64,000 nucleotides of DNA from Escherichia coli. GTDB lineage: Bacteria; Pseudomonadota; Gammaproteobacteria; Enterobacterales; Enterobacteriaceae. Positions 113 through 48,662 of this stretch are shown here, piece by piece. The stretch lies in the NCBI RefSeq assembly GCF_030384885.1, contig NZ_CP128613.1, one strand, 5' to 3'. The notes below the pieces were generated by a model. That model saw nothing but the letters and a program-made list of their open reading frames with translations. It did no database searches and had not been told where the DNA came from. Position 1 is the stretch's first letter, and every line of letters begins with the position of its first letter. The position numbers and the translations under genes are program-made.

Positions 113-1069
113 TCAATACCCCATGTTTTTCTTCTTCTCTAACTCTTCTTTTGCAGTATCAGGCAGGTAAAGGGTGGACTTGGTCAGGGTCAGCTTTTCA
201 GGCAGGGTGCCGTCTTTTTTATATTTCTCCAGCGCATCAAAAGCGGGGCCTGCCATGTTCGGCGTCAGTTCAACGCTGGCGTTCGCTTCGCCATCAATCA
301 TCGCTTTGTAGATGTCCGGCACGCCGTCGATAGAGCCTGTCAGGATATCTTTGCCCGGTTTCAGGCCCGCTTCTTTAATTGCCTGAATTGCACCAATCAC
401 CATGTCATCGTTATGGGCGTAAACCATGCAGATGTTTTTGCCGTTGTTTTCCGCTTTGATAAAGCTCTCCATCACTTCTTTGCCTTTGCTGCGGGTGAAG
501 TCACCTGACTGCGAGCGGATAATTTTGATATTTGGCGCATTCTTAATGGCTTCGGCAAAGCCTTTCTTACGGTCAATGGCGACGCTGGCCCCAACGGTGC
601 CCTGCAGCTCCACCACGTTGCATGGTTTGCCATTCACTTCTTTTACCAGCCAGTCACCGATCAATTTGCCTTCGAGGATGTTGTCGGCAGTGACGGTGGT
701 CATATAGAGAGATTTGTCTTTCACATCGATGGAACGGTCAAGCAAGAAGACCGGGATTTCGGCATCTTTCGCCTCTTTTAATACCGGTTCCCAACCAGTC
801 GCCACCACCGGAGCGATAAAGATCGCATCCACCCCTTGTGCAACGAAGGAACGTACCGCTTTAATCTGGTTTTCCTGCTTTTGCTGACCATCGGCAATTT
901 TCAACGTGATACCGCGTTTTTCGGCTTCACTTTTCGCCACGTTGGTTTCTGCGGCGCGCCAGCCGGATTCCGATCCGACCTGCGAAAATCCTACGGTTAA
1001 TGGAGCGGCCAACGCCATAGACGACATGGCTGCCGAGACTGCAGAGACTACAAGTATGCGTTTCCACAT
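113..1069 (-). CDS. ytfQ: Periplasmic sugar-binding protein of ABC transporter (galactofuranose-binding YtfQ)
   Basis: 318-aa ORF with N-terminal signal peptide; matches E. coli YtfQ from memory; position next to ppa as in K-12. Confidence 0.93.
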   Translation of the reverse strand: MWKRILVVSAVSAAMSSMALAAPLTVGFSQVGSESGWRAAETNVAKSEAEKRGITLKIADGQQKQENQIKAVRSFVAQGVDAIFIAPVVATGWEPVLKEAKDAEIPVFLLDRSIDVKDKSLYMTTVTADNILEGKLIGDWLVKEVNGKPCNVVELQGTVGASVAIDRKKGFAEAIKNAPNIKIIRSQSGDFTRSKGKEVMESFIKAENNGKNICMVYAHNDDMVIGAIQAIKEAGLKPGKDILTGSIDGVPDIYKAMIDGEANASVELTPNMAGPAFDALEKYKKDGTLPEKLTLTKSTLYLPDTAKEELEKKKNMGY

Positions 1070-1331
1070 AGGGTTGTCCTCGTCGGGGTAATTATTATTG
1101 GTGAAAAGATGTTCGCGAAAAAACTATAGACAATTCGTTATGTAACGGATTGCGTTACATCACACTTCAAAAAAGTAAATAAAACGTTAATCACAAGTTT
1201 GTAATCGCTTTCATCTCACTATGAAAAATGCGGCTACGGTTATGGATTTTCCTGCTCTTTAAACCACCTTAAAACTGGCTAAAAAGGAAAATGAAGAAGA
1301 AAACAAGCGAAGACATTCGGCGCGAGTTGGC

Positions 1332-1337
1332 TATAAT
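1332..1337 (+). promoter_or_regulatory. Candidate -10 hexamer (tataat) of ppa promoter
   Basis: Perfect TATAAT about 40 nt upstream of the ppa ATG; -35 not canonical; inference only. Confidence 0.35.
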
Positions 1338-1378
1338 ACTCGGCACTTGTTTGCCACATATTTTTAAAGGAAACAGAC

Positions 1379-1909
1379 ATGAGCTTACTCAACGTCCCTG
1401 CGGGTAAAGATCTGCCGGAAGACATCTACGTTGTTATTGAAATCCCGGCTAACGCAGATCCGATCAAATACGAAATCGACAAAGAGAGCGGCGCACTGTT
1501 CGTTGACCGCTTCATGTCCACTGCGATGTTCTATCCGTGCAACTACGGTTACATCAACCACACCCTGTCTCTGGACGGTGACCCGGTTGACGTACTGGTC
1601 CCGACTCCGTACCCGCTGCAGCCAGGTTCCGTGATTCGCTGCCGTCCGGTTGGCGTTCTGAAAATGACCGACGAAGCCGGTGAAGATGCGAAACTGATTG
1701 CTGTTCCGCACACCAAGCTGAGCAAAGAATACGATCACATCAAAGACGTTAACGATCTGCCTGAACTGCTGAAAGCACAGATCGCTCACTTCTTCGAGCA
1801 CTACAAAGACCTCGAAAAAGGCAAGTGGGTGAAAGTTGAAGGCTGGGAAAACGCAGAAGCCGCTAAAGCTGAAATCGTTGCCTCCTTCGAGCGCGCAAAG
1901 AATAAATAA
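1379..1909 (+). CDS. ppa: Inorganic pyrophosphatase
   Basis: 176-aa ORF whose translation matches E. coli Ppa from memory. Confidence 0.97.
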
Positions 1910-1925
1910 GTTCTTCTAGTGCCAT

Positions 1926-1965
1926 AACCCTGAACGCCGGGCTTCGGTTAGTAAGGGTTTTTTAT
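1926..1965 (+). terminator. Putative intrinsic terminator after ppa
   Basis: GC-rich imperfect hairpin (aaccc...gggtt) followed by a T-run; stem not perfect. Confidence 0.45.
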
Positions 1966-2251
1966 GCCCGCGATAAATAAACTCTCTATTCCCCTATCAT
2001 TATTCTCAGCGCTTGCAAGGCTTGAACGGTAAGAACAAGCTAAACTCGACCACCATTTTGCTGTTCATAGCCGCTTGCTGGAAATTAGCCGACCTCACTC
2101 ATTCTCACCGTTCAAAGCGTGCCCCCGTTTTACCCCTGCGTAATTGTGAACGCCAGCAGAGTTTTTTATGCGTTTACGGATATGGAAAGCGGCTCGGAGA
2201 GAAAAGCTAAAGATGGGGAAGTTACAAAAAAAATCGCGAGATACATCGCAT

Positions 2252-2286
2252 AAAACAACGCCACCCGAAGGTGGCGTGCTTTTATT
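2252..2286. terminator. Bidirectional intrinsic terminator between ppa and ytfP
   Basis: Hairpin acgccacc-cgaa-ggtggcgt flanked by an A-run upstream and a T-run downstream, directly after the ytfP stop. Confidence 0.7.
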
Positions 2287-2287
2287 A

Positions 2288-2629
2288 TTACTTATCCCTG
2301 TCTAACCAGTCGCCGCTTTCAATTAGCTTTAATCCATCGACGGGTCGTTGATAAACGTACATCCATGCACTCCCGTACGGCGTCTGAATCAACTGGCGCG
2401 CGTATTCACCGCCCCTGGTGCGCAAGGCATCAAGTTCGGCCAGCGTGGCGTTGTCAATACGATAAACTTCACCGTGTACTGTTCCGTTCCCCGGAACTGC
2501 GCCTGGATAGTGGCCCAGGCTATACAACTGGTAGTTATCGATACTGAAATCGCCCAGTAACTGGGCATTGGTCATCCAGTGACTGTTGCCTTGTTTGTGG
2601 CGTAAACTGCCGTAGACAAATATTCGCAT
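2288..2629 (-). CDS. ytfP: Gamma-glutamylcyclotransferase family protein YtfP
   Basis: 113-aa ORF; matches E. coli YtfP from memory; immediately upstream of tamB. Confidence 0.9.
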   Translation of the reverse strand: MRIFVYGSLRHKQGNSHWMTNAQLLGDFSIDNYQLYSLGHYPGAVPGNGTVHGEVYRIDNATLAELDALRTRGGEYARQLIQTPYGSAWMYVYQRPVDGLKLIESGDWLDRDK

Positions 2630-2631
2630 TG

Positions 2632-8183
<5,552 letters not shown>

Positions 8184-22449: not shown

Positions 22450-23080
22450 ATGAAGGGTCAACCAAAAGCCAGCTAAGGATTGTCTCTTTGATGACCTTAC
22501 GCCTGGCTTCCAGTGCCTGCGGTGAAACCATACTGATGTGATAAACCAGGCCAAGCGTATGCTGGTTGATCAAATAATATCCTCCAAGAGCAGCAATATT
22601 AATATTCACCTGCAACGGGTCGATATCTGGCTTAAAAATATTGCGCCGTTTGCCTTCAGCTAATAATGACTCCATTAACTGTAAGTGTGCGTGGTTAATT
22701 TCTAAAAGGCGCTGTGATTTTGCATAATGCACCCCTTTACTCTGGTTTTCACTATGCACAATTTTTAAAAACCAGGGGTTAGCAATGTAATAATCCCAGG
22801 TGAAATCGATAATTTTCTCAATGGCTTTTTGTGGCGGAAGACCTGAGAAATCAAGGGATTTTTCTTTTTGCCGAATATCATTCCAGGTATATTCCAGCAC
22901 TTCGATAAATAAATTTTCTTTATTACCAAAGTGATGATAAACCGTCTGTTTACTGCACTCCGCGGCCTTGACGATATTATCGACTCTGGCCCCTTCGTAA
23001 CCATATTCGGCAAATTCATTAACCGCACATAACAACAGCTTTTCCTTCAGGCTTTGTACGTTGCTGGTATCAAGATACAT
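22433..23080 (-). CDS. TetR/AcrR-family transcriptional regulator
   Basis: N-terminal HTH ([28 protein letters not shown]) typical of TetR; ATG at 23080 preferred over the GTG at 23140 used by the ORF track; divergent from the downstream operon. Confidence 0.8.
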
Positions 23081-23202
23081 TCCGCTTCCCCACGTCTTCT
23101 TCGTGATGACTATCTTAACCCGATTTGTTAGAAGCTCCACTAAAATGGCTAAAAACTCGCAATTTCATCGGGTTATCAAATGCTCTGTGATCATTATCGC
23201 AT

Positions 23203-23224
23203 ATCAACCAACTAGATGGTTGAT
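23203..23224. promoter_or_regulatory. Candidate TetR operator (inverted repeat) in divergent promoter region
   Basis: atcaacca-actaga-tggttgat, 8-bp perfect arms, between the TetR gene and the SDR gene; inference. Confidence 0.35.
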
Positions 23225-23291
23225 CTTTCTTGCCACACATTGCAAGCTAATCGTCACTTAAGGAAATAATATTCAAAAAGAGGGTTATTGT

Positions 23292-24083
23292 ATGAAGTCA
23301 ACACGTCCTGTTGCTGTCATCACTGGAGCCGCACGTGGTATTGGAAAGGGCTGTGCACTGGAACTTGCGCGTGGCGGATTTAATCTGCTGATTAATGATC
23401 GTCCGGATGCCGACAGCGTAGAAAAATTACATGCCACACAACAAGAATGTCTGGCGGAAGGCGTGGAAGTGATTTGCTTCCCTGCTGATGTTGGCGATCT
23501 CTCCCTTCATGAAGAGATGCTCGACGCGGCGCAAAACCAGTGGGGACGTCTGGACTGTCTACTCAACAACGCAGGCATTTCAGTGAAAAAACGCGGTGAC
23601 CTCCTCGACCTCGAACCAGACAGCTTCGACCAAAACATTGCCATTAACACCCGTGCGCCGTTCTTCCTTGCTCAGGCATTCAGTAAGCGATTACTGGCAC
23701 AGCCGAAACCGGAAGCAGAACTGCCGCACCGCTCGATTATTTTTGTCAGTTCCATAAACGCCATCATGCTGGCGATGAATCGCGGCGAATATACCATTGC
23801 CAAAACTGCCGTCTCCGCCGCAGCTCGTCTGTTTGCCGCTCGCCTTTGCAATGAACAAATTGGCGTTTATGAAGTGCGCCCTGGCCTAATCAAAACCGAT
23901 ATGACCATTCCGGCAACGGCTTATTACGACGAACTGATTGCTAAGGGGTTAGTGCCGTGGGGACGTTGGGGTTATCCGGCTGATATTGCCTCAACGGTCC
24001 GCGCGATGGCGGAAGGCAAACTGATTTACACCTGTGGTCAGGCGGTCGCCATCGACGGCGGCTTAAGTATGCCGCGCTTCTGA
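23292..24083 (+). CDS. Short-chain dehydrogenase/reductase (SDR)
   Basis: TGAARGIG cofactor motif, NNAG, and Ser...Y-x3-K catalytic motif (YTIAK) read directly. Confidence 0.85.
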   Translation: MKSTRPVAVITGAARGIGKGCALELARGGFNLLINDRPDADSVEKLHATQQECLAEGVEVICFPADVGDLSLHEEMLDAAQNQWGRLDCLLNNAGISVKKRGDLLDLEPDSFDQNIAINTRAPFFLAQAFSKRLLAQPKPEAELPHRSIIFVSSINAIMLAMNRGEYTIAKTAVSAAARLFAARLCNEQIGVYEVRPGLIKTDMTIPATAYYDELIAKGLVPWGRWGYPADIASTVRAMAEGKLIYTCGQAVAIDGGLSMPRF

Positions 24084-24092
24084 GGCTGAATC

Positions 24093-24935
24093 ATGAGAGA
24101 TCTGTTACAACGCCCGGATTTATTCAGTATCAATACTGCGACACTGGGCTATAAAACGCCGCTACCTGCCATTATTGATGCCTGCGCCGCACGCGGTATT
24201 GGCGCGATTGCCCCCTGGCGCAGGGAGTTACAGGGTGAAGATCTCCAGCAAATCGCCCGCCAGCTTGCTGCCAGTAACATGAGCGTTTCCGGTTTGTGTC
24301 GTAGCACCTATTACACCGCGCCGACGCTGACGGAACGCAAACTGGCGATTGATGATAACCGCCGGGCGCTGGACGACGCCGCTGTACTGAACGCCGCCTG
24401 TTATATGCAGGTGGTTGGCGGTCTGCCAATGGGAACAAAAGATCTGTACGAAGCGCGGGAACAAGTGAAACAAGGGATTCGCCAGTTGCTGCCACATTCG
24501 AAAGATGTCGGCGTGCCAATTGCGCTGGAGCCGCTGCACCCGATGACAGCTGCCGATCGCTCTTGCCTGTGCACGTTACGTCAGGCGCTGGACTGGTGTG
24601 ATGAACTCGATCCCGATGGGGAGTTTGGCCTCGGCGTGGCGGTGGATGTTTATCACGTCTGGTGGGACCCGGATCTCGCCAGTCAGATCCTGCGTGCCGG
24701 AAAACGCATCCTCGCGTTTCATGTTTCCGACTGGCTGGTGCCAACCACCGATTTAGTCAATGACCGGGGAATGCCGGGAGATGGCGTAATCAATATTCCG
24801 TCTATTCGTCGCCAGGTAGAAAATGCCGGATTTAACGGTGCTGTGGAACTGGAAATTTTCTCACCGTACTGGTGGCAGCAAGATATTAACAGCACGTTGG
24901 ATATTAGCGTCGATCGCATCGCGCATTATTGCTAA
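24093..24935 (+). CDS. Sugar-phosphate isomerase/epimerase-like (xylose-isomerase-type TIM barrel) protein
   Basis: 280-aa ORF; family assignment by overall resemblance only (…AFHVSDW…), no database check. Confidence 0.55.
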   Translation: MRDLLQRPDLFSINTATLGYKTPLPAIIDACAARGIGAIAPWRRELQGEDLQQIARQLAASNMSVSGLCRSTYYTAPTLTERKLAIDDNRRALDDAAVLNAACYMQVVGGLPMGTKDLYEAREQVKQGIRQLLPHSKDVGVPIALEPLHPMTAADRSCLCTLRQALDWCDELDPDGEFGLGVAVDVYHVWWDPDLASQILRAGKRILAFHVSDWLVPTTDLVNDRGMPGDGVINIPSIRRQVENAGFNGAVELEIFSPYWWQQDINSTLDISVDRIAHYC

Positions 24936-24938
24936 GGA

Positions 24939-25721
24939 ATGATCATGAGTGACCAACCCGTTCTGTTCAGCAGAGCGGCGGCTTCCTGCCGCCTGACATT
25001 GAACCGTGAAGATAAATGTCATGCTATTAATGAAGAAATGATCGAATCTCTCGACCATTATTTAAATGAAATTGAAAACGACACCACATTACGATTAGTC
25101 GAATTAACGGCAACCGGCGATAAATTCTTTTGTGCAGGCGGCGATATTAAATCGTGGTCAGCCTATTCGCCATTAGATATGGGCAGAAAATGGATTAAAC
25201 GCGGCAATGACGTTTTTAATCGCCTGCGCAATTTACCTCAATTAACGGTTGCGAATCTCAACGGTCATACCATCGGCGGTGGTATTGAACTTGCCTTGTG
25301 CTGCGATATTCGTATTGCTCGCCCCGGCGCGAAATTCTCTAATCCGGAAGTAATGCTCGGCATGGTGCCTGGCTGGATGGGCATTGAACGCGTGCTTAAT
25401 CAGGTCGGTCCGGTGGTCGGTCGCCAGATGCTGATGCTGGGTAAACGCCTGACGGCGCAGGAAGCTCAGGCAGCGAATTTAATTGATGAAGTGGTAGAAA
25501 AAGAACAGGTGGAAAGCTGGATGGCGAATCAGTTAGCGCAGCTGGAAAAATGCGGTCCGGTGGCGCTCGCACATATCAAGCAACTGATTCTGGCTCTAGA
25601 AAATAAACATGCTGATTACCCGCACCAGTTACTGGCTGGATTAATGTCCGCCACTCAGGATTGCCAGCAGGCGACGCGCGCATTTGCCGAAAAAAGTAGC
25701 GTGAGCTTCCAAAATCAATAA
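24939..25721 (+). CDS. Enoyl-CoA hydratase/isomerase (crotonase family)
   Basis: Crotonase signatures FFCAGGDIKSW and GHTIGGGIELALCCDIRIA. Confidence 0.85.
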   Translation: MIMSDQPVLFSRAAASCRLTLNREDKCHAINEEMIESLDHYLNEIENDTTLRLVELTATGDKFFCAGGDIKSWSAYSPLDMGRKWIKRGNDVFNRLRNLPQLTVANLNGHTIGGGIELALCCDIRIARPGAKFSNPEVMLGMVPGWMGIERVLNQVGPVVGRQMLMLGKRLTAQEAQAANLIDEVVEKEQVESWMANQLAQLEKCGPVALAHIKQLILALENKHADYPHQLLAGLMSATQDCQQATRAFAEKSSVSFQNQ

Positions 25722-25730
25722 GGAAATTGT

Positions 25731-27272
25731 ATGCGTAAGATAACAACCGCCGAGACACTGGCGGCGCAAATTCAGGACGGTGCAACCATTGCCATTAGCG
25801 GTAATGGCGGCGGCATGGTGGAAGCGGACCATATTCTGGCTGCTATTGAAGCGCGTTTCCTGCAAACCGGACACCCGCGCGATCTGACATTAATCCACTC
25901 GCTGGGCATTGGCGATCGCGACTGCAAAGGCACTAACCGCTTCGCTCATGCAGATATGCTCAAACGCATCATTGCCGGACATTTTACCTGGTCGCCCAAG
26001 ATGCAGGATCTGGTGAAAAACAATGCTATTGAAGCCTACTGCTTCCCTGGTGGCGTAATTCAGGCACTGCTGCGGGAGATCGGTGCCGGACGTCCAGGGC
26101 TTTTTACCCACGTTGGACTGGGATCGTTTGTTGATCCGCGCAACGGCGGCGGTAAGTCGAACGCCAGCACCACTGAGGATCTGGTAGAACTGATTGAAAT
26201 CGACGGTGAAACCAAACTTCGTTATCGCCCTTTCAAAGTGGATTACGCGATTTTGCGTGGCACTTATGCCGATCCTCGAGGCAACGTCAGCCTTGAAGAA
26301 GAGGCGATTGATATGGATAGCTATTCCATGGCGCTGGCAGCACACAACAGCGGTGGCAAAGTGTTCGTACAGGTGCGCGATGTGCTGGAAGCTGGTGCCA
26401 TTGAACCACGCCGGGTCAAATTACCGGGCATTCTGGTTGATGGCATCGTTGAACACCGCGAACAACCGCAAACATATCTTGGCGGTTACGACCTGACCAT
26501 CAGCGGTCAGCACCGCCGTTTAAGTTCTAACGACGCTATTGAACTGGTTACTCATCCGGTGCGCCGCCTGATTGCCCGTCGGGCAGCACGCGAACTGGTG
26601 GCTGGCGCTTCAACCAACTTTGGCTTTGGCATTCCCGGCGGCATTCCTGGGGTTGCACTGCGCGAAGGCGTGCCTTATCAAAGTTTATGGCTGAGCGTCG
26701 AGCAAGGCGTGCATAACGGTATGATGCTGGATGATGCTCTGTTCGGCTGCGCCCGTAACGCCGATGCCATTATTCCATCACTCGATCAATTCGAATTCTA
26801 CAGTGGCGGAGGGATCGATATCACCTTCCTCGGCATGGGAGAGATGGATCAGCATGGTAACGTCAACGTCTCCCATCTCAATGGCAATCTCATTGGCCCC
26901 GGCGGATTTCTCGAAATTGCGCAAAACGCCCGTAAAGTGGTGTTCTGTGGCACGTTCGACGCCAAAGGTAGCAAGATTGATGTAACACCAGATGGCTTGC
27001 ATATCGCCCAGTCAGGTCAAATCCCTAAACTGGTTACCCAAGTGGAAAAAATCACTTTTAGCGCCGCCTACGCACAGCAAAGCGGTCAGGAAGTGTTGTA
27101 TATCACTGAACGTGCAGTATTCCAATTAACAGCAGAAGGCGTTGAATTAATTGAAATCGCACCAGGTGTGGAGATTGAGCGCGACATTCTGCCATATATG
27201 GCTTTCCGTCCAATTATCAATCAGCCACGCCTGATGGAAAGTAGCCTGTTTACGCCGATGGAGGATGCATGA
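25731..27272 (+). CDS. Family-I CoA-transferase (YdiF/acetate CoA-transferase-like, fused A/B subunits)
   Basis: 513-aa ORF; long stretches resemble E. coli YdiF as I recall it (…VGLGSFVDPRNGGGK…); 3' end overlaps the next gene (ATGA). Confidence 0.8.
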   Translation: MRKITTAETLAAQIQDGATIAISGNGGGMVEADHILAAIEARFLQTGHPRDLTLIHSLGIGDRDCKGTNRFAHADMLKRIIAGHFTWSPKMQDLVKNNAIEAYCFPGGVIQALLREIGAGRPGLFTHVGLGSFVDPRNGGGKSNASTTEDLVELIEIDGETKLRYRPFKVDYAILRGTYADPRGNVSLEEEAIDMDSYSMALAAHNSGGKVFVQVRDVLEAGAIEPRRVKLPGILVDGIVEHREQPQTYLGGYDLTISGQHRRLSSNDAIELVTHPVRRLIARRAARELVAGASTNFGFGIPGGIPGVALREGVPYQSLWLSVEQGVHNGMMLDDALFGCARNADAIIPSLDQFEFYSGGGIDITFLGMGEMDQHGNVNVSHLNGNLIGPGGFLEIAQNARKVVFCGTFDAKGSKIDVTPDGLHIAQSGQIPKLVTQVEKITFSAAYAQQSGQEVLYITERAVFQLTAEGVELIEIAPGVEIERDILPYMAFRPIINQPRLMESSLFTPMEDA

Positions 27273-29350
27273 GTCAGCTTGATGACACCCTCCTTGATGC
27301 GCTGACGCATGTCACTTTCCCGAAGGGTTTTGCACAGGCAGAACCCGCATGGGTTGTCACGGTAGACGGTGTTGATTACCCACTCTGGCAAACAGATGCC
27401 CTGGTAGTCGGCAGTGGTGCAGCCGGGCTGCGTGCAGCTGTGGAACTTAAACGCCGCCAGCAAAATGTGTTGATCGCCACTGCCGGGTTATATATGGGGA
27501 CGTCGGCATGTTCTGGTTCCGATAAACAGACACTGTTTACCGCCGCTACCGCGGGCAATGGCGACAACTTCACCAAACTGGCAGAGGCACTGGCGAGCGG
27601 TGGAGCGATGGATCACGACACCGCTTATGTCGAAGCGGTAGGTTCTCTGCACACTCTTGGCGGGTTGCAATATCTTGGTCTGGAATTACCGGAAGATCGC
27701 TATGGCGCGATTCTTCGTTATCAAACCGACCATGACGAAGCCGGGCGTGCAACCTCGTGTGGGCCGCGTACCTCAAGGTTAATGGTGAAAGTGCTGTTGG
27801 AAGAAGTGCAGCGCCTCGCCATTCCAGTGTTGACCAGTGCAACAGTGATTAAACTGCTGCATCAGCGTGACGAAAACGGCGAAGACTGCGTGGCGGGGGC
27901 AATCCTCGCGACCGGTCATCGCGCCCATAACCCATGGGGGCTGGCAATTGTGACTGCGCCCAATGTGGTGCTGGCAACAGGAGGGCCTGGCGAGCTTTAT
28001 CGAGACAGTGTGTACCCACATAAATGCTTCGGCTCGCTGGGGCTGGCGCTGGAAGAAGGTCTGACGCTAACCAATCTGACCGAAAGCCAGTTTGGTATTG
28101 GCACGCCACGCAACACCTTTCCGTGGAATTTGTCCGGCACCTATGTACAGGTGATCCCATATATCTATTCCGTAGATGCTGAGGGCAACGAGTATAACTT
28201 CCTCACGGATTACTATCGAACTACCCAGGAACTGGCTTCAAACATCTTCCGTAAAGGCTATCAGTGGCCGTTTCACGCCACACGAGTGATGGATTTTGGC
28301 TCCAGCTTGTTAGATATGGCAGTAGCGCAAGAGCAGCAATCAGGGCGTCAGGTATTTATGGATTTCAATCGCAATCCTGAACCTGTGCCGGGTGACATGC
28401 CGTTCTCATTAGATCGACTGGACGACGACGTTCGCGCGTATCTGGAAAATAACGACGCTCTGGCACCATCGCCCATCGAACGACTGCAACGAATGAATCC
28501 GCTGTCTATCTCGCTGTATAAGATGCACGGTTACGATCTCACCACGCAGCCATTGCAGTTTGCCATGAATAATCAGCATATGAATGGCGGCATTGAAGTG
28601 GATATCTGGGGGCAAACCTCCCTGCCCGGCTGTTTCGCCGTGGGGGAAGTTGCTGGCACACACGGCGTTACCCGACCTGGCGGTGCGGCGCTGAATGCCG
28701 GACAGGTATTTGCCGTGCGACTGGCACGTTTTATTGGTTGCACACAAAAGCGGTCCGTTGAGGATGATATCGCGCAGCTGGTAGCCTCACCTCTGCATAC
28801 AATCAGAGAAGTTATCGCTCAGGCACTGGCAAACGAGAACGGAATGACGCTGGCAACGGTGAAAGAAAAAATCCAGGCGCGAATGTCTGATTACGCGGGA
28901 TTTATTTGCCATGCTGATAAAGTTCGTCACGCCGCCCGTGACGCCATGCTGTTAAATGAATTTGCGCAGCAACATGGTCTAACTATCAACCACGCCGGTG
29001 AAATTGCCGAGCTATTTATGTGGCGGCATATGGCATTAACATCCGCTGCGGTGTTAAGCCAGCTATCACATTATATTGATGCTGGCGGTGGTAGTCGTGG
29101 AGCACGGATGATTATTGATCCACAAGGAGAATATCTTCCACAAACTCGTCGCGGCGCAATCGAAGATTGGCGTTTTCGCTCTGAACAAGCTGAAGATAAA
29201 AATCACAGACTAACTCTCTCCTTTTCACAAGGTTTATTTATTAATGAAATTAAGTTCTTGAGAAACTTACCGCATATTAAAGGTATTTACTTTGAGAAGA
29301 ATTGGCCTGATTTTCTTAACGGAACAATTTATCAGACACGGCATGAATAA
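27269..29350 (+). CDS. FAD-dependent oxidoreductase (fumarate reductase/succinate dehydrogenase/L-aspartate oxidase-like flavoprotein)
   Basis: Dinucleotide-binding motif VVGSGAAGLRAA, HMNGG and GEVAGTHGVTRPGGAALN motifs of the FAD_binding_2 family; 693 aa with an AT-rich C-terminal tail. Confidence 0.75.
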   Translation: MSQLDDTLLDALTHVTFPKGFAQAEPAWVVTVDGVDYPLWQTDALVVGSGAAGLRAAVELKRRQQNVLIATAGLYMGTSACSGSDKQTLFTAATAGNGDNFTKLAEALASGGAMDHDTAYVEAVGSLHTLGGLQYLGLELPEDRYGAILRYQTDHDEAGRATSCGPRTSRLMVKVLLEEVQRLAIPVLTSATVIKLLHQRDENGEDCVAGAILATGHRAHNPWGLAIVTAPNVVLATGGPGELYRDSVYPHKCFGSLGLALEEGLTLTNLTESQFGIGTPRNTFPWNLSGTYVQVIPYIYSVDAEGNEYNFLTDYYRTTQELASNIFRKGYQWPFHATRVMDFGSSLLDMAVAQEQQSGRQVFMDFNRNPEPVPGDMPFSLDRLDDDVRAYLENNDALAPSPIERLQRMNPLSISLYKMHGYDLTTQPLQFAMNNQHMNGGIEVDIWGQTSLPGCFAVGEVAGTHGVTRPGGAALNAGQVFAVRLARFIGCTQKRSVEDDIAQLVASPLHTIREVIAQALANENGMTLATVKEKIQARMSDYAGFICHADKVRHAARDAMLLNEFAQQHGLTINHAGEIAELFMWRHMALTSAAVLSQLSHYIDAGGGSRGARMIIDPQGEYLPQTRRGAIEDWRFRSEQAEDKNHRLTLSFSQGLFINEIKFLRNLPHIKGIYFEKNWPDFLNGTIYQTRHE

Positions 29351-29370
29351 TATTGCAAAGGTTAATCACT

Positions 29371-29847
29371 ATGCGAAATATAATCAGATCTATTAATTCA
29401 TTGCTTTCCACGTTGAACATTACCATTTTGGCAATTATTGTGATGTGCGTTACATGGCAAGTAGTAGCACGATTTATCTTTAAAAGCCCCAGCATTTTTA
29501 CAGATGAACTTAGTCGTTTACTATTTATTTGTCTTGGACTTTTTGGTGGTGCTTATACTGCCGGACAAAACCGACATCTGGCCATTGATCTTCTGCCAAT
29601 GATGCTAAAAGGAAAATCCCGACGTTATTTATTCTTATGTATTCAGGCCATTGTTATTCTTTTTGCCTCTATCATTATGGTTTATGGTGGCGGGTTATTA
29701 ACACTGGACACATTTGATTCAGGGCAAACTTCTCCGGCTTTAGGCTGGCAGATGGGATATATTTACATGAGCATTCCAATAAGTGGCATCCTTATTATTA
29801 TATACACCATAGATACAGTTTTAACCGAACTTAAACAACCACTCTAA
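29371..29847 (+). CDS. TRAP transporter small permease (DctQ-like)
   Basis: About 158 aa with 4 predicted TM helices; ATG at 29371 with upstream aaagg preferred over the TTG at 29353; directly upstream of DctM. Confidence 0.75.
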   Translation: MRNIIRSINSLLSTLNITILAIIVMCVTWQVVARFIFKSPSIFTDELSRLLFICLGLFGGAYTAGQNRHLAIDLLPMMLKGKSRRYLFLCIQAIVILFASIIMVYGGGLLTLDTFDSGQTSPALGWQMGYIYMSIPISGILIIIYTIDTVLTELKQPL

Positions 29848-29869
29848 AATAAGTAGGGATGGAGAAAAC

Positions 29870-31171
29870 ATGGATTACTGGTTACCGATCATTGTGTTAT
29901 TTGGTTCTTTCTTTTTTATGTTGGCATTAGGTGTTCCTATTGTCTATGCTATTGGTTTATCAACACTGGCATCAATTACTACACAACTCGATTTCAACTC
30001 AGCATTGAGTGTGGTTTCACAAAAGTTAGCCTCCGGGTTAGATAGTTTTACGTTGTTGGCAATCCCATTTTTTATCTTGTCTGGCAACATTATGAATCAT
30101 GGAGGAATAGCGCGACGATTAATCAACTTTGCCCGTATTCTCGGCGGTCGTCTGCCAGGCTCACTTGCTCACTGTAATATTCTTGCCAATATGCTGTTCG
30201 GGGCAATTTCTGGTTCAGCTGTTGCTTCGGCGGCTGCGATGGGCGGCGTCATGCATCCACAGCAGGTTAAAGAGGGTTACGACCCGGCATTCAGTACCGC
30301 TGTTAACGTTGCCTCTGCACCGACAGGTTTACTTATTCCACCCAGTAATACGTTAATTGTCTTTTCACTGGTCAGTGGTGGTACTTCTATTGCCGCACTG
30401 TTCCTGGCAGGATATGTCCCGGGAATTTTATTGGGCCTGGCGCTGATGACTGTGGCTGGTATTATCGCGGTACGCCGGGGTTATCCAAAACCAGAACGTC
30501 CGACTTTGCGCCAGGCTGGAGTGGCAATATGGATGGCGATCCCCAGTATTTTCCTGATTGTATTAATTATGGGTGGTGTACTAAGCGGTATTTTTACCCC
30601 GACAGAAGCATCTGCAATTGCGGTAATTTATACCCTTTTCCTTGCACTGGTTCTTTATCGTGAAATATCAGTTAAAGATTTACCTAAGATATTTCTGGAG
30701 TCCGTCATTACCACTGCAATTGTCTTGTTGTTAATTGGTTCTTCAATGGGAATGTCATGGGCAATGTCAAACGCTGACGTTCCCTTCCTGATTCTCGATT
30801 TGCTTAACACTATTTCTGATAATCCAATAATAATCCTGCTTATTATCAATATTATTCTGTTGATTATCGGCACATTTATGGATATGACACCGGCAGTACT
30901 GATTTTTACGCCGATATTTTTACCCGTTGTCACCGAACTGGGCATGGACCCGATTCACTTTGGTATTGTCATGGTACTGAACATGTGTATCGGTATTTGT
31001 ACTCCGCCTGTAGGCAGTGTGTTATTTGTCGGTTGTAGTGTATCTAAATTACCGATTAATAAAATTATCAAACCTATGCTGCCCTTCTATGCCGTGATGG
31101 TATTGGTGCTGGCTATGGTGACCTATATTCCGCAAATCAGTATGGCATTGCCAAGAGCACTGGGCTACTGA
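29870..31171 (+). CDS. TRAP transporter large permease (DctM-like)
   Basis: 433-aa polytopic membrane protein; size and hydrophobicity pattern typical of DctM. Confidence 0.85.
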   Translation: MDYWLPIIVLFGSFFFMLALGVPIVYAIGLSTLASITTQLDFNSALSVVSQKLASGLDSFTLLAIPFFILSGNIMNHGGIARRLINFARILGGRLPGSLAHCNILANMLFGAISGSAVASAAAMGGVMHPQQVKEGYDPAFSTAVNVASAPTGLLIPPSNTLIVFSLVSGGTSIAALFLAGYVPGILLGLALMTVAGIIAVRRGYPKPERPTLRQAGVAIWMAIPSIFLIVLIMGGVLSGIFTPTEASAIAVIYTLFLALVLYREISVKDLPKIFLESVITTAIVLLLIGSSMGMSWAMSNADVPFLILDLLNTISDNPIIILLIINIILLIIGTFMDMTPAVLIFTPIFLPVVTELGMDPIHFGIVMVLNMCIGICTPPVGSVLFVGCSVSKLPINKIIKPMLPFYAVMVLVLAMVTYIPQISMALPRALGY

Positions 31172-31223
31172 TGCGCATTCACTGGCGGCTCCTGCCGCCA
31201 TATTTATTAGAAAAGGAACATCT

Positions 31224-32195
31224 ATGAAAATAAAAGTATCCGCTGGCATTATCGGTGCTGTTCTTATGTTATCTGCAGGCCAGTCCTGGGCAGTAACATT
31301 AAAACTTAGCCATAATCAGGATAAATCTCATCCTGTTCATAAAGCGATGGAGTTCTTTGCGAAAAAGAGCAAAGAGTACTCTAACGGTGATATTACTATT
31401 CGTATTTATCCAAATGGAACATTGGGTACTCAACGAGAAACAATGGAGCTGATTCGTTCTGGTGCTATTCCGCTGGTAAAAACCAATGCGGCGGAGATGG
31501 AAGCCTTCGAGAGTTCGTATAAAATATTTAGCCTGCCTTATTTGTTCCGCGATCGTGATCATTATTATCAGGTCATGCAAGGCGATATCGGAAGGAAAAT
31601 CCTCGACTCAACGAAAAACAAAGGTTATTTCGGTCTGACTTTCTATGATGGAGGCGCCCGCAGCTTCTACGGCAATAAACCGGTGCTGAAACCAGACGAT
31701 CTCAAAGGAATGAAAGTTCGTGTCCAGCCAAGCCCAGGGGCAGTTGAGATGATCAAAGTCATGGGAGGTAACCCAACACCGCTGGATTATGGAGAGTTGT
31801 ACACAGCATTGCAGCAAGGTGTGGTTGATATGGCGGAAAACAGTGTGATGGCGCTGACCACCATGCGCCACGGTGAAGTAGCAAAATCCTTCAGCCTTGA
31901 CGAACACACTATGGTTCCTGATGTGGTTCTAATGAGCAATGCTTCGTTTGATAAGCTTAGCCCGGAAAATCAGGCAGCTATATTAAAAGCAGCTAAAGAA
32001 TCAATGAGCTACATGAAAGACTTGTGGAGCGAGGAAGAGAAAAAAGAATTCGCTAAACTGGATCAAATGGGCGTGAAAGTCTACAAGGTTGATAAAGCAC
32101 CGTTTATCGAGAAAGTGCAGCCGATGTACGCAGCCTTTGCTAAGGAAAACCCTGCTCTCGCCCCAATGCTAACTGATATTCAGGCGACTAAGTAA
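31224..32195 (+). CDS. TRAP transporter substrate-binding protein (DctP-like), periplasmic
   Basis: 323 aa, signal peptide MKIKVSAGIIGAVLMLSAGQSWA; DctP-size soluble protein adjacent to DctQM. Confidence 0.8.
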   Translation: MKIKVSAGIIGAVLMLSAGQSWAVTLKLSHNQDKSHPVHKAMEFFAKKSKEYSNGDITIRIYPNGTLGTQRETMELIRSGAIPLVKTNAAEMEAFESSYKIFSLPYLFRDRDHYYQVMQGDIGRKILDSTKNKGYFGLTFYDGGARSFYGNKPVLKPDDLKGMKVRVQPSPGAVEMIKVMGGNPTPLDYGELYTALQQGVVDMAENSVMALTTMRHGEVAKSFSLDEHTMVPDVVLMSNASFDKLSPENQAAILKAAKESMSYMKDLWSEEEKKEFAKLDQMGVKVYKVDKAPFIEKVQPMYAAFAKENPALAPMLTDIQATK

Positions 32196-32252
32196 TTATC
32201 TTAATAGGGCTGCTTATTGTGGCCCTTAGCAATATCTACAAGCGCTCGCTAT

Positions 32253-46935: not shown

Positions 46936-47595
46936 TTAACCAATAATATGAAGTGATGTCAGTGGGATATCAACACCCAGTGCGCGCGAAAATAACCACT
47001 CCGGCTCGCCGAGATCGTTAAAAGATTCCTCACCATTTAACAGCAAATATTCACAGGTATCTTCGGTCACCTGCCGTTCATAGCCCATGGTAAAATTATG
47101 CACTTCCCATTTGGCGTGGTTTTGATTTTCAACTTTTTCCAGCATATAGACGGGTTCGATATTTCCCGGTTCTTCACTGTTAAAAAATCGCTGCCAGCGT
47201 TTTTCCTGCCAGTTTAATGTCATTGCCCCCATCGCTTTGGCGTTGATCGCTTCGCGCCAGTGGCTCTCTTTGCTGATACCGTAGCTCTCTTCATAGACAA
47301 AGAGCTTTATATCATCAATGTCATCAATATCTTCGCCGCCGGTGGTATTGATTTGCAGAAATTCATCGCCCGAAGTGTAGTAGCGGAAAATCTGACTACC
47401 GCCGCCCAGATCGATGTGGCTGACAGCGGCTACCGTAAATTCTTCACCCGGCAGCGCAATCAGCAATTCATCTTCCAGCAAACGAAACGCTAACGTGTCG
47501 AGCGTAAAGCCGCTATTGAGATGAAGTCCCAGTGGGCCACGTGCGATTGCAGGTTTATCATCCTTACCAAACAGACGCTTGAAAAAACTTGTCAT
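46936..47595 (-). CDS. yjfK: DUF2491 protein YjfK
   Basis: 219-aa ORF; its ATG overlaps the stop of the upstream RCK-domain ORF (ATGA). Confidence 0.88.
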   Translation of the reverse strand: MTSFFKRLFGKDDKPAIARGPLGLHLNSGFTLDTLAFRLLEDELLIALPGEEFTVAAVSHIDLGGGSQIFRYYTSGDEFLQINTTGGEDIDDIDDIKLFVYEESYGISKESHWREAINAKAMGAMTLNWQEKRWQRFFNSEEPGNIEPVYMLEKVENQNHAKWEVHNFTMGYERQVTEDTCEYLLLNGEESFNDLGEPEWLFSRALGVDIPLTSLHIIG

Positions 47596-48347
47596 ATGCT
47601 TCCCTCAATGTCCTGCCATGCCACTTCTTCAGCCAAAATACGGTTATTGCCAATAAGATGCAGCCACATACCGCCTTTAACTTCCGTTGCAATGACTGGA
47701 TTCAGTTCCATTCCCCTACCATTTTTACAACTGCTTATTCCCAGGACGGTGGCATCATGATGAAGTTTCATATAATGCATCAATGCGCCATAACGCATTG
47801 AGGTAACCCGTTCAGGAATCGGTAAAACAAACCCCGTATCCCCCAGCATTGGATTCATAATCGATGCCACTGATTGAGATGAACCGGGATCTTGTATTGA
47901 ACGGGAAAGTTGTTCTGCTGAAATATTTCGCACTATTTCAATACGTTGACAATGAACCTCTAATAAACGAGCGTAGCGTTCATCTTCCAGATAAGCGACG
48001 ATATGGCATCTTTCAGGAATAAAATCCGCCAGGGATAGTGCGGTCGTGAACGTCTGCTCATCTGTTTGCGAAAAGATGATGACACTTTGGCAATTTGCCA
48101 GTCCCATGCGGGTATGTTCATGCGGATCATTAAAATTACTAATACGAATGAAATCGACCCAATTATTTCCAGGCATCGGATGTTGAATATCATCCCGCTC
48201 ACACAAAAGTACCCGGCCAAATGCTCTTCGGGAATCAAACAACAATAATGAAATCATCTTTTCAGTCTGATGCCCGCGCCATCCAATGACCAGCATATGG
48301 TTGCGCAAATTGCTGTAGTCGCCCATTCCCGTCATTCCTTTCGCCAA
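47592..48347 (-). CDS. RCK/TrkA-like cytoplasmic domain protein (C-terminal half of a Kch/MthK-like K+ channel)
   Basis: Rossmann-like start …HMLVIGWRGHQTEKMISLL… and later segments resemble TrkA-N/TrkA-C by eye; ORF track starts at TTG 48347, but in-frame ATGs at 48335 and 48326 follow an AAAGGA Shine-Dalgarno-like sequence; same frame as the pore ORF. Confidence 0.6.
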   Translation of the reverse strand: MAKGMTGMGDYSNLRNHMLVIGWRGHQTEKMISLLLFDSRRAFGRVLLCERDDIQHPMPGNNWVDFIRISNFNDPHEHTRMGLANCQSVIIFSQTDEQTFTTALSLADFIPERCHIVAYLEDERYARLLEVHCQRIEIVRNISAEQLSRSIQDPGSSQSVASIMNPMLGDTGFVLPIPERVTSMRYGALMHYMKLHHDATVLGISSCKNGRGMELNPVIATEVKGGMWLHLIGNNRILAEEVAWQDIEGSI

Positions 48348-48353
48348 TATGTC

Positions 48354-48662
48354 TTACACTAATGCAATGACTTTTCCCATTAAAGCGCCAAATAAACCAA
48401 CACTCACAGGAATCTGCCAGAGCGCTGTGAACAGACGTCCCCCCACCGTTTGGGGTGTGATATCACCAAACCCCAGCGTTGATCCCACAACCGAGCAGTA
48501 ATAAATAAAATTACTAAGTTGTCCTACCAACGCCTCTTCATGCAACGCAGTTAACACCAGATAACAAAACAGATACTGTCCTGTAAATAATCCAGTCAAT
48601 GCCGGCCAGGTAAGCCTGGAAAGGTGACGTCGGCAGGTTTTAATGATCCATGAGAAGAACAT
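48354..48662 (-). CDS. Two-TM potassium-channel pore domain protein (selectivity filter TLGFGD)
   Basis: 102 aa: hydrophobic M1, pore helix + GSTLGFGDITP (T-x-G-[YF]-G-D K+ filter), hydrophobic M2; ATG overlaps yjfJ stop (TAATG); ends at a TAA in frame with the RCK ORF. Confidence 0.65.
   Translation of the reverse strand: MFFSWIIKTCRRHLSRLTWPALTGLFTGQYLFCYLVLTALHEEALVGQLSNFIYYCSVVGSTLGFGDITPQTVGGRLFTALWQIPVSVGLFGALMGKVIALV

Follow-up and report, generated by a model that had tools for sequence, protein, structure and literature searches.

The interval between ppa and ytfP in the Escherichia coli DNA analysed here (one stretch of 64 kb, hereafter the window) is very probably, judging from its sequence, the decayed and inert remnant of a chpS-chpB cassette, a type II toxin-antitoxin module of the MazEF/PemIK family, which at least two deletions have destroyed. 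An initial annotation had placed the chpBS pair between ppa and ytfP in K-12, had put the corresponding interval here at about 380 bp, and had taken this genome to lack the module. The length is exact, as the intergenic region spans 1910-2287 (378 bp), and the stated gene order is right: K-12 has the order ytfP, 211 bp, chpS, chpB, 79 bp, ppa (a gap of 886 bp), the same spacings being given in PMC5120126. The absence of the module holds as well: no intact copy is present in the gap or in the window, and none was detected on the chromosome (by blastn) or on the two plasmids (by tblastn) of strain 2013C-4282, whose chromosome record NZ_CP027579.1 is 100% identical to the window over the regions compared (1379-2629 and 3000-6000).

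The window is in reverse orientation relative to K-12 and matches K-12 4,395,915-4,451,006 at ca. 95-97% identity. The interval lies between two flanking core genes: ppa (inorganic pyrophosphatase; 1379-1909, plus strand), annotated as such in NZ_CP027579.1, and ytfP (gamma-glutamylcyclotransferase family; 2288-2629, minus strand), likewise supported by its ORF and by the annotation of that record. Beyond these are ytfQ (113-1069) and tamB (2632-6411), both on the minus strand. By blastn, window 1379-1982 matches K-12 ppa plus 73 bp at 96.7% identity, and window 2126-2629 matches K-12 ytfP plus 162 bp at 94.7%. The coding sequence of ytfP is 100% identical among the window, BL21-type strains and SE15, and 99.7% identical between these and K-12; beside it the 3' end of tamB differs by 3-4% and ppa by 2-3%. 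Such uniformity is unusual over 342 bp, and a recent sweep or a recombination patch may account for it; a ytfP haplotype tied to the type of allele at the neighbouring site was sought and none was found, K-12 ytfP being 99.7% identical to that of the window. At the start of the window, downstream of ytfQ (1-112), GC-rich palindromic repeats resembling REP elements (…GCCGGATGCGGCGTGAATGCCTTATCCGGC…) can be read directly from the sequence, and the K-12 match begins only at window 22.

The core of the evidence is a fossil of chpB on the minus strand at 1991-2116, colinear with nucleotides 19-145 of chpB (codons 7-49) and recovered by local alignment, blastn and tblastn. In the local alignment (window 2116-1991) 92 of 126 nucleotides are identical to K-12 chpB, with one 1-nt deletion; blastn against K-12 places window 2017-2116 inside chpB (78.4% over 102 columns, E = 1e-13), and overall nucleotide identity lies at 73-78%. 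The initial annotation had conceded that careful translation might yet disclose a chpS/chpB-like ORF: there is no such ORF, but there is a ChpB-like fragment, since tblastn matches ChpB residues 15-43 on the minus strand at 62% identity, across in-frame stops (E = 3e-8 when only the gap is searched; in a search of the whole window, E = 6e-5 and no other match). With its frame restored the fossil reads FER*E*VXVG*FPASGYEQQNGGRV*LVLTVQALQALRIMIGE*, for comparison with FERGDIVLVGFDPASGHEQQGAGRPALVLSVQAFNQLGMTLVA in residues 7-49 of ChpB; four in-frame stops and one frameshift break the frame. Next to it the last sense codon and the stop codon of chpB persist at 1986-1991 (minus strand; GAA TAG here, GAA TAA in K-12), and the translation ends ...GE*. 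The frame-restored fossil gives no PemK_toxin match in Pfam (K-12 ChpB matches PF02452 at 1e-25), and none was expected because it is a degraded fragment of 43 residues; being short (126 nt) and 73-78% identical, it is assigned to chpB through direct homology and synteny. It has what characterizes a pseudogene: significant, colinear homology to chpB at the orthologous position, and a reading frame destroyed without purifying selection.

Global alignment with cheap gap extension split the relic into blocks of 3-6 nt, of which only the first and last were used. A MAFFT alignment of relics and chpB from 11 loci mis-set the 1-nt gap, so the relic-chpB identities of about 64% read from it are underestimates, and pairwise local alignment was used instead. 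An additional in-frame deletion of 24 bp, suggested by the first multiple alignment, was rejected, the contiguous pairwise alignment being more parsimonious.

A second block of cassette sequence is the remnant of the non-coding chpS leader at 2126-2250 (minus strand), which includes a small hairpin with a T-run (2235-2250, minus strand) found by hairpin search. Over the block that runs from the ytfP stop up to a point 49 bp ahead of the chpS ATG, this leader is 83% identical between the window and K-12; it can be aligned with seven chpSB-bearing loci of several genera (K-12, E. coli E69, Lelliottia, Enterobacter asburiae, Enterobacteriaceae RIT691, Pseudocitrobacter, and Kluyvera) and is absent from cassette-free sites. 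Just upstream of the chpS ribosome-binding site all seven loci carry the invariant palindrome GTTATACTTTGTATAAC, at about 2415-2431 in locus L001 and at the equivalent place in L003, L027, L038, L047, L065, and L082, the rest of the leader being only loosely conserved among them. This palindrome, lost in the window, is probably the ChpS/ChpB operator, overlapping a TATACT -10 box. Between leader and fossil stand 9 nt of junction filler (2117-2125, minus strand), delimited by the alignments, at the site of a large deletion. The alignment shows chpS to be wholly deleted, and ChpS gives no tblastn match below E = 0.2 in the gap and none in the 64-kb window. A functional module would comprise an intact toxin ORF of ca. 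116 aa with the PemK/MazF fold (PF02452), an 83-aa chpS immediately upstream of and overlapping the toxin gene, and an autoregulated promoter with its operator palindrome; here the toxin gene is reduced to codons 7-49 and the other two components are missing.

From these blocks a course of decay may be proposed, in which the order, mechanism and age of the deletions are inferred and the deletion end points are accurate to about 10 nt. An ancestor would have carried the chpSB cassette at exactly the ppa-ytfP position. One deletion, of ca. 310 bp (the distance that separates the homologous flanking blocks in K-12), would have taken out the operator/promoter palindrome and the ribosome-binding site together with the whole of chpS and codons 1-6 of chpB, leaving the 9-nt filler. 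Another, of ca. 200 bp, would have removed chpB codons ~50-114, possibly between short TGGTGG repeats: its ends fall in such motifs (CTGGTGG at codons 47-49, and GGTGGTGG before the stop), which makes slippage or illegitimate recombination plausible. What remained would then have decayed at the neutral rate, gathering substitutions, stops and a frameshift. Left over, in cassette order, are ca. 125 bp of leader, 126 bp from inside chpB, and the stop codon of that gene; altogether the cassette accounts for about 265 of the 378 bp, and the other ~113 bp are two terminators. The alignment to K-12 and to other strains that the initial annotation had proposed shows boundaries that are identical in other relic carriers.

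The two terminators that had been noted in the gap are both there, albeit of unequal strength. That of ytfP (ACGCCACC-CGAA-GGTGGCGT; 2258-2277) is a bidirectional rho-independent hairpin of 8 pairs, 6 of them GC, which is strong on both strands (z = -4.4 and -5.3) and, according to the multiple alignment, is core sequence kept in all genera examined. That of ppa (1927-1963, plus strand) is a terminator-like fold outside the cassette, with an ACCCU/AGGGU outer stem, a GCCG/CGGU inner stem and a U-run; its hairpin (1927-1958, -14.4 kcal/mol) is weak by energy, given z = +0.24, and a homologous hairpin occurs in the cassette-free sites of Citrobacter amalonaticus and Salmonella diarizonae, with its position kept and its sequence partly so. 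No promoter-like site was found in 1910-2287, the only one in 1100-2700 being the ppa promoter at 1310-1337, and an Rfam scan of 1000-3000 gave no match at E up to 1. The small ORFs of the gap (30-65 aa) bear out the earlier judgement that none is credible: five of them gave no Pfam match, and they are not conserved between alleles, which differ by 1-bp indels. With no promoter, antitoxin gene or open frame, the relic is predicted to make neither toxin nor antitoxin, and the interval appears to function only as the convergent terminator region of ppa and ytfP.

Co-option of the remnant as a small protein or regulatory RNA might be imagined on two grounds: the relic allele has persisted for long, and RefSeq, which otherwise leaves the relic without annotation, lists one minus-strand ORF over it (WP_001297254.1, a 50-aa "hypothetical protein" of NCTC 13148). 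This ORF is not conserved, however; in the window the corresponding frame stays open for 30 aa only, and alleles differ by 1-bp indels, of which a further one separates the window, SE15 and Nissle from BL21-type strains, SCPM and E. albertii. Neither a promoter-like site nor an Rfam or Pfam match points to a product. Between lineages the relic is 81-96% identical (100% between BL21-type strains and NCTC 13148, which share an allele), similar to third-codon positions of ppa (86-96%) and to the intergenic flanks, and below the coding sequences of ppa and ytfP. Divergence at the level of synonymous and intergenic sites gives no hint of constraint; the pattern argues for neutral decay, and we consider co-option very improbable.

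To place the 378-bp gap among related sites we used 80 ytfP loci, one genome per species. Twenty-five loci (Citrobacter, Salmonella diarizonae, Enterobacter, Klebsiella, Kluyvera, Raoultella and others) have no trace of a cassette and consist of two terminators and a short spacer, with a gap of 99-194 bp. Intact chpSB is found at 10 loci, 4 representing Escherichia species and 6 belonging to other genera, with gaps of ca. 860-1,075 bp (in the 9 of 10 with ppa within the locus) and a chpS start 213-218 nt after ytfP. Several further loci hold other cargo in gaps of 1.6-2.7 kb, such as the Hcp-domain protein with an HExxH extension and a small ORF in Salmonella arizonae. The gap of the window fits none of these three classes and matches only the relic allele. 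The initial annotation had left the choice between an empty site and a module never acquired, and a lineage that never had chpSB, with K-12-like strains gaining it by insertion, would indeed show neither intact chpS or chpB nor a credible ORF; toxin-antitoxin modules are, moreover, often acquired horizontally. Yet a naive site would hold only two convergent terminators and a spacer, as do the trace-free sites of other genera, which contain no relic sequence, whereas ca. 265 of the 378 bp here align colinearly with the cassette (leader, chpB codons 7-49 and chpB stop). The presence of the chpB fossil refutes such an origin, which we regard as highly improbable, and the colinear remains together with the shortness of the trace-free sites indicate a module that was once present in an ancestor and has been lost.

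Some of these other loci deserve mention in their own right. The gap of Salmonella enterica subsp. arizonae (L015 3734-5227) encodes a 403-aa protein in which an N-terminal T6SS Hcp domain (PF05638, 4e-16) is joined to a C-terminal extension with the sequence HERTH in it; a 93-aa ORF comes next, and the pair looks like an Hcp-fused effector with its immunity gene. In Enterobacter cloacae (L031 3340-5216) ca. 1.9 kb of ORFs without Pfam match are accompanied, next to ppa, by a ChpS-like fragment (residues 9-31, 65%, E = 3e-6), and in the 347-bp gap of Citrobacter sedlakii (L029) there is a ChpB-like fragment (residues 81-105, E = 2e-5). Relics of chpSB therefore seem to have formed independently in other genera.

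Within E. coli the relic is widespread. Among 5,426 complete genomes, 3,100 (ca. 57%) contain chpS-chpB DNA and 2,317 (ca. 43%) contain the relic-spanning segment, counted at a coverage of 80% or more; its carriers include T7Express/BL21, ATCC 11775, SE15 and Nissle. The 378-bp relic allele occurs with identical boundaries in E. coli SCPM-O-B-8794 and in the type strain of E. albertii. One genome with chpSB DNA, E. coli HH45 (NZ_CP116411.1), retains only 101 bp of the chpS-chpB query (nt 264-364, 100% identical), annotated there as a PemK/MazF family toxin; this is an independent and recent partial deletion of chpSB. As to the window, no more than about 10 genomes reach 99% identity with it in the ppa-ytfP region, as would suit a recent deletion private to this strain or clone. 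Such a deletion would not be found with identical boundaries in 2,317 E. coli genomes of several lineages and in E. albertii, nor would it have diverged by 4-19% between its carriers and by 22-27% from intact chpB, and we hold it to be extremely improbable.

A further state of the locus arises from the relic allele. The gap is split near window 2275 in 227 genomes, and esiB is present in 188 of the 5,426; by state, the collection divides into ca. 57% with chpSB, ca. 39% with the relic only, and ca. 3.5% with the relic and esiB. The latter gene (490 aa, with Sel1 repeats) sits inside the relic allele in PBP5 and Nissle 1917 (L083 3711-5745), with a copy of the ytfP terminator hairpin on either side (AACGCCACCCGCAGGTGGC and AACGCCACCCGAAGGTGGCGT), and the chpB fossil is kept between ppa and esiB. 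The window itself has a single hairpin and no esiB. Insertion of esiB, an ExPEC antigen, into the relic allele fixes the order of events at this locus. No EsiB homologues were found in the inserts of ca. 1.6-2.0 kb in other genera.

The divergence of the relic gives a rough idea of its age. The relic is closest to chpB of the Escherichia type and much further from that of other genera, the absolute identities in this comparison being underestimated. Among E. coli, E. whittamii and two other Escherichia species, intact chpSB has diverged by 5-9%, keeping pace with tamB. The relic is 22-27% away from every intact Escherichia chpB, and relics differ among themselves by 4-19%. The excess of relic-chpB over relic-relic divergence suggests, as a rough estimate on 126 sites that ignores recombination, that pseudogenisation predates the split between E. 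coli and E. albertii, and that the alleles have coexisted or been exchanged since. More tentatively, chpSB and relic could form a polymorphism older than that split, kept either by balancing selection (the benefit of a toxin-antitoxin module against its cost) or by repeated exchange through the ppa and ytfP flanks. The boundaries shared with E. albertii, the divergence of the relic, and the presence of both alleles in phylogroup A, to which we take both K-12 (chpSB) and BL21 (relic) to belong, favour this possibility, although we think it less probable than its negation. It would fit a ytfP-ppa site that is a hot spot for small cargo across Enterobacteriaceae.

No other ChpS- or ChpB-like sequence was found in the 64-kb window by tblastn, where the relic is the only match; the ChpS and ChpB queries were taken from the K-12 record, and those for MazF, MazE and PemK were approximate sequences. 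The chromosome of strain 2013C-4282 was searched with a chimeric query in which 3 kb of this strain's tamB was followed, on the opposite strand, by chpS and those parts of chpB that the relic lacks. This query ranks NZ_CP027579.1 first with a single place in that record, and its extra places across the collection number exactly 3,100; since only one place was reported, that chromosome has no second chpS or chpB copy that blastn can detect with K-12 DNA. The plasmids of the strain (54.5 kb and 118.8 kb) gave no ChpS or ChpB match by tblastn (threshold E = 0.1); what they do carry is hok/gef, yacAB and ccdAB. Elsewhere in the window two segments differ from K-12. At 22836-32250, 9.4 kb replace 1,078 bp of K-12 (the yjfZ region, rplI-ytfA) and encode a short-chain dehydrogenase, a xylose-isomerase-like TIM-barrel protein, an enoyl-CoA hydratase, a CoA transferase, an FAD-binding oxidoreductase, and a TRAP transporter (DctQ, DctM, DctP); this looks like a small catabolic island. 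At 47589-48654, an insertion of 1,066 bp between yjfJ and yjfK (50 bp apart in K-12) holds a 251-aa ORF for which Pfam gave nothing, and codes for a 102-aa protein in which an Ion_trans_2 (ion channel) domain is recognized.

Taken as a whole the relic is ordinary: the remnant of a known toxin-antitoxin cassette, in a common and known state of a locus already known to vary. That chpSB may be present or absent here is a common polymorphism that was published in 2013, and it has little weight beyond bookkeeping. The chpB fossil itself seems to have gone unremarked in the literature, though an earlier report is possible, and only three points are mildly new: the fossil without annotation, its occurrence in E. 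albertii as well, and the finding that esiB was inserted into the relic allele. As the "absent" state is a fossil, it records loss and not non-acquisition, a distinction that matters when gains and losses of toxin-antitoxin modules are counted in pangenome studies. The difference between K-12 (chpSB) and BL21 (relic) is also relevant to work on persistence or phage defence in which the two strains are compared.

The states of the ytfP-ppa site were surveyed in 47 complete genomes by Pastorello et al. (2013, mBio 4:e00206-13, PMC3735183), with chpBS in 53%, esiB in 15% and neither in 32%. The window corresponds to the state with "neither esiB nor chpBS"; in its account of these states the genes are described as simply absent, short repeats flanking esiB are described, and no chpB remnant is mentioned, whereas here both the "neither" and the esiB states contain the chpB fossil, with esiB lying within the relic allele. 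Compared to the chpS-chpB module of K-12 (ChpBI-ChpBK, b4224-b4225), the window shares the position between ytfP and ppa, the order and the orientation, and keeps ca. 125 bp of leader, chpB codons 7-49 and the chpB stop, but is devoid of chpS, the operator palindrome, the ribosome-binding site, and chpB codons 1-6 and ~50-114; because of these missing parts, the four stops and the frameshift, it is not expected to work as a toxin-antitoxin system. A similar case may be ccdO157, a chromosomal module that some E. coli lineages reportedly keep intact, while in others it is degraded or missing. The likeness lies in a chromosomal type II module that occupies a fixed intergenic site and has decayed to a variable extent; the difference is that ccdO157 belongs to the CcdAB family, not to MazEF/PemIK, and occupies a different site.
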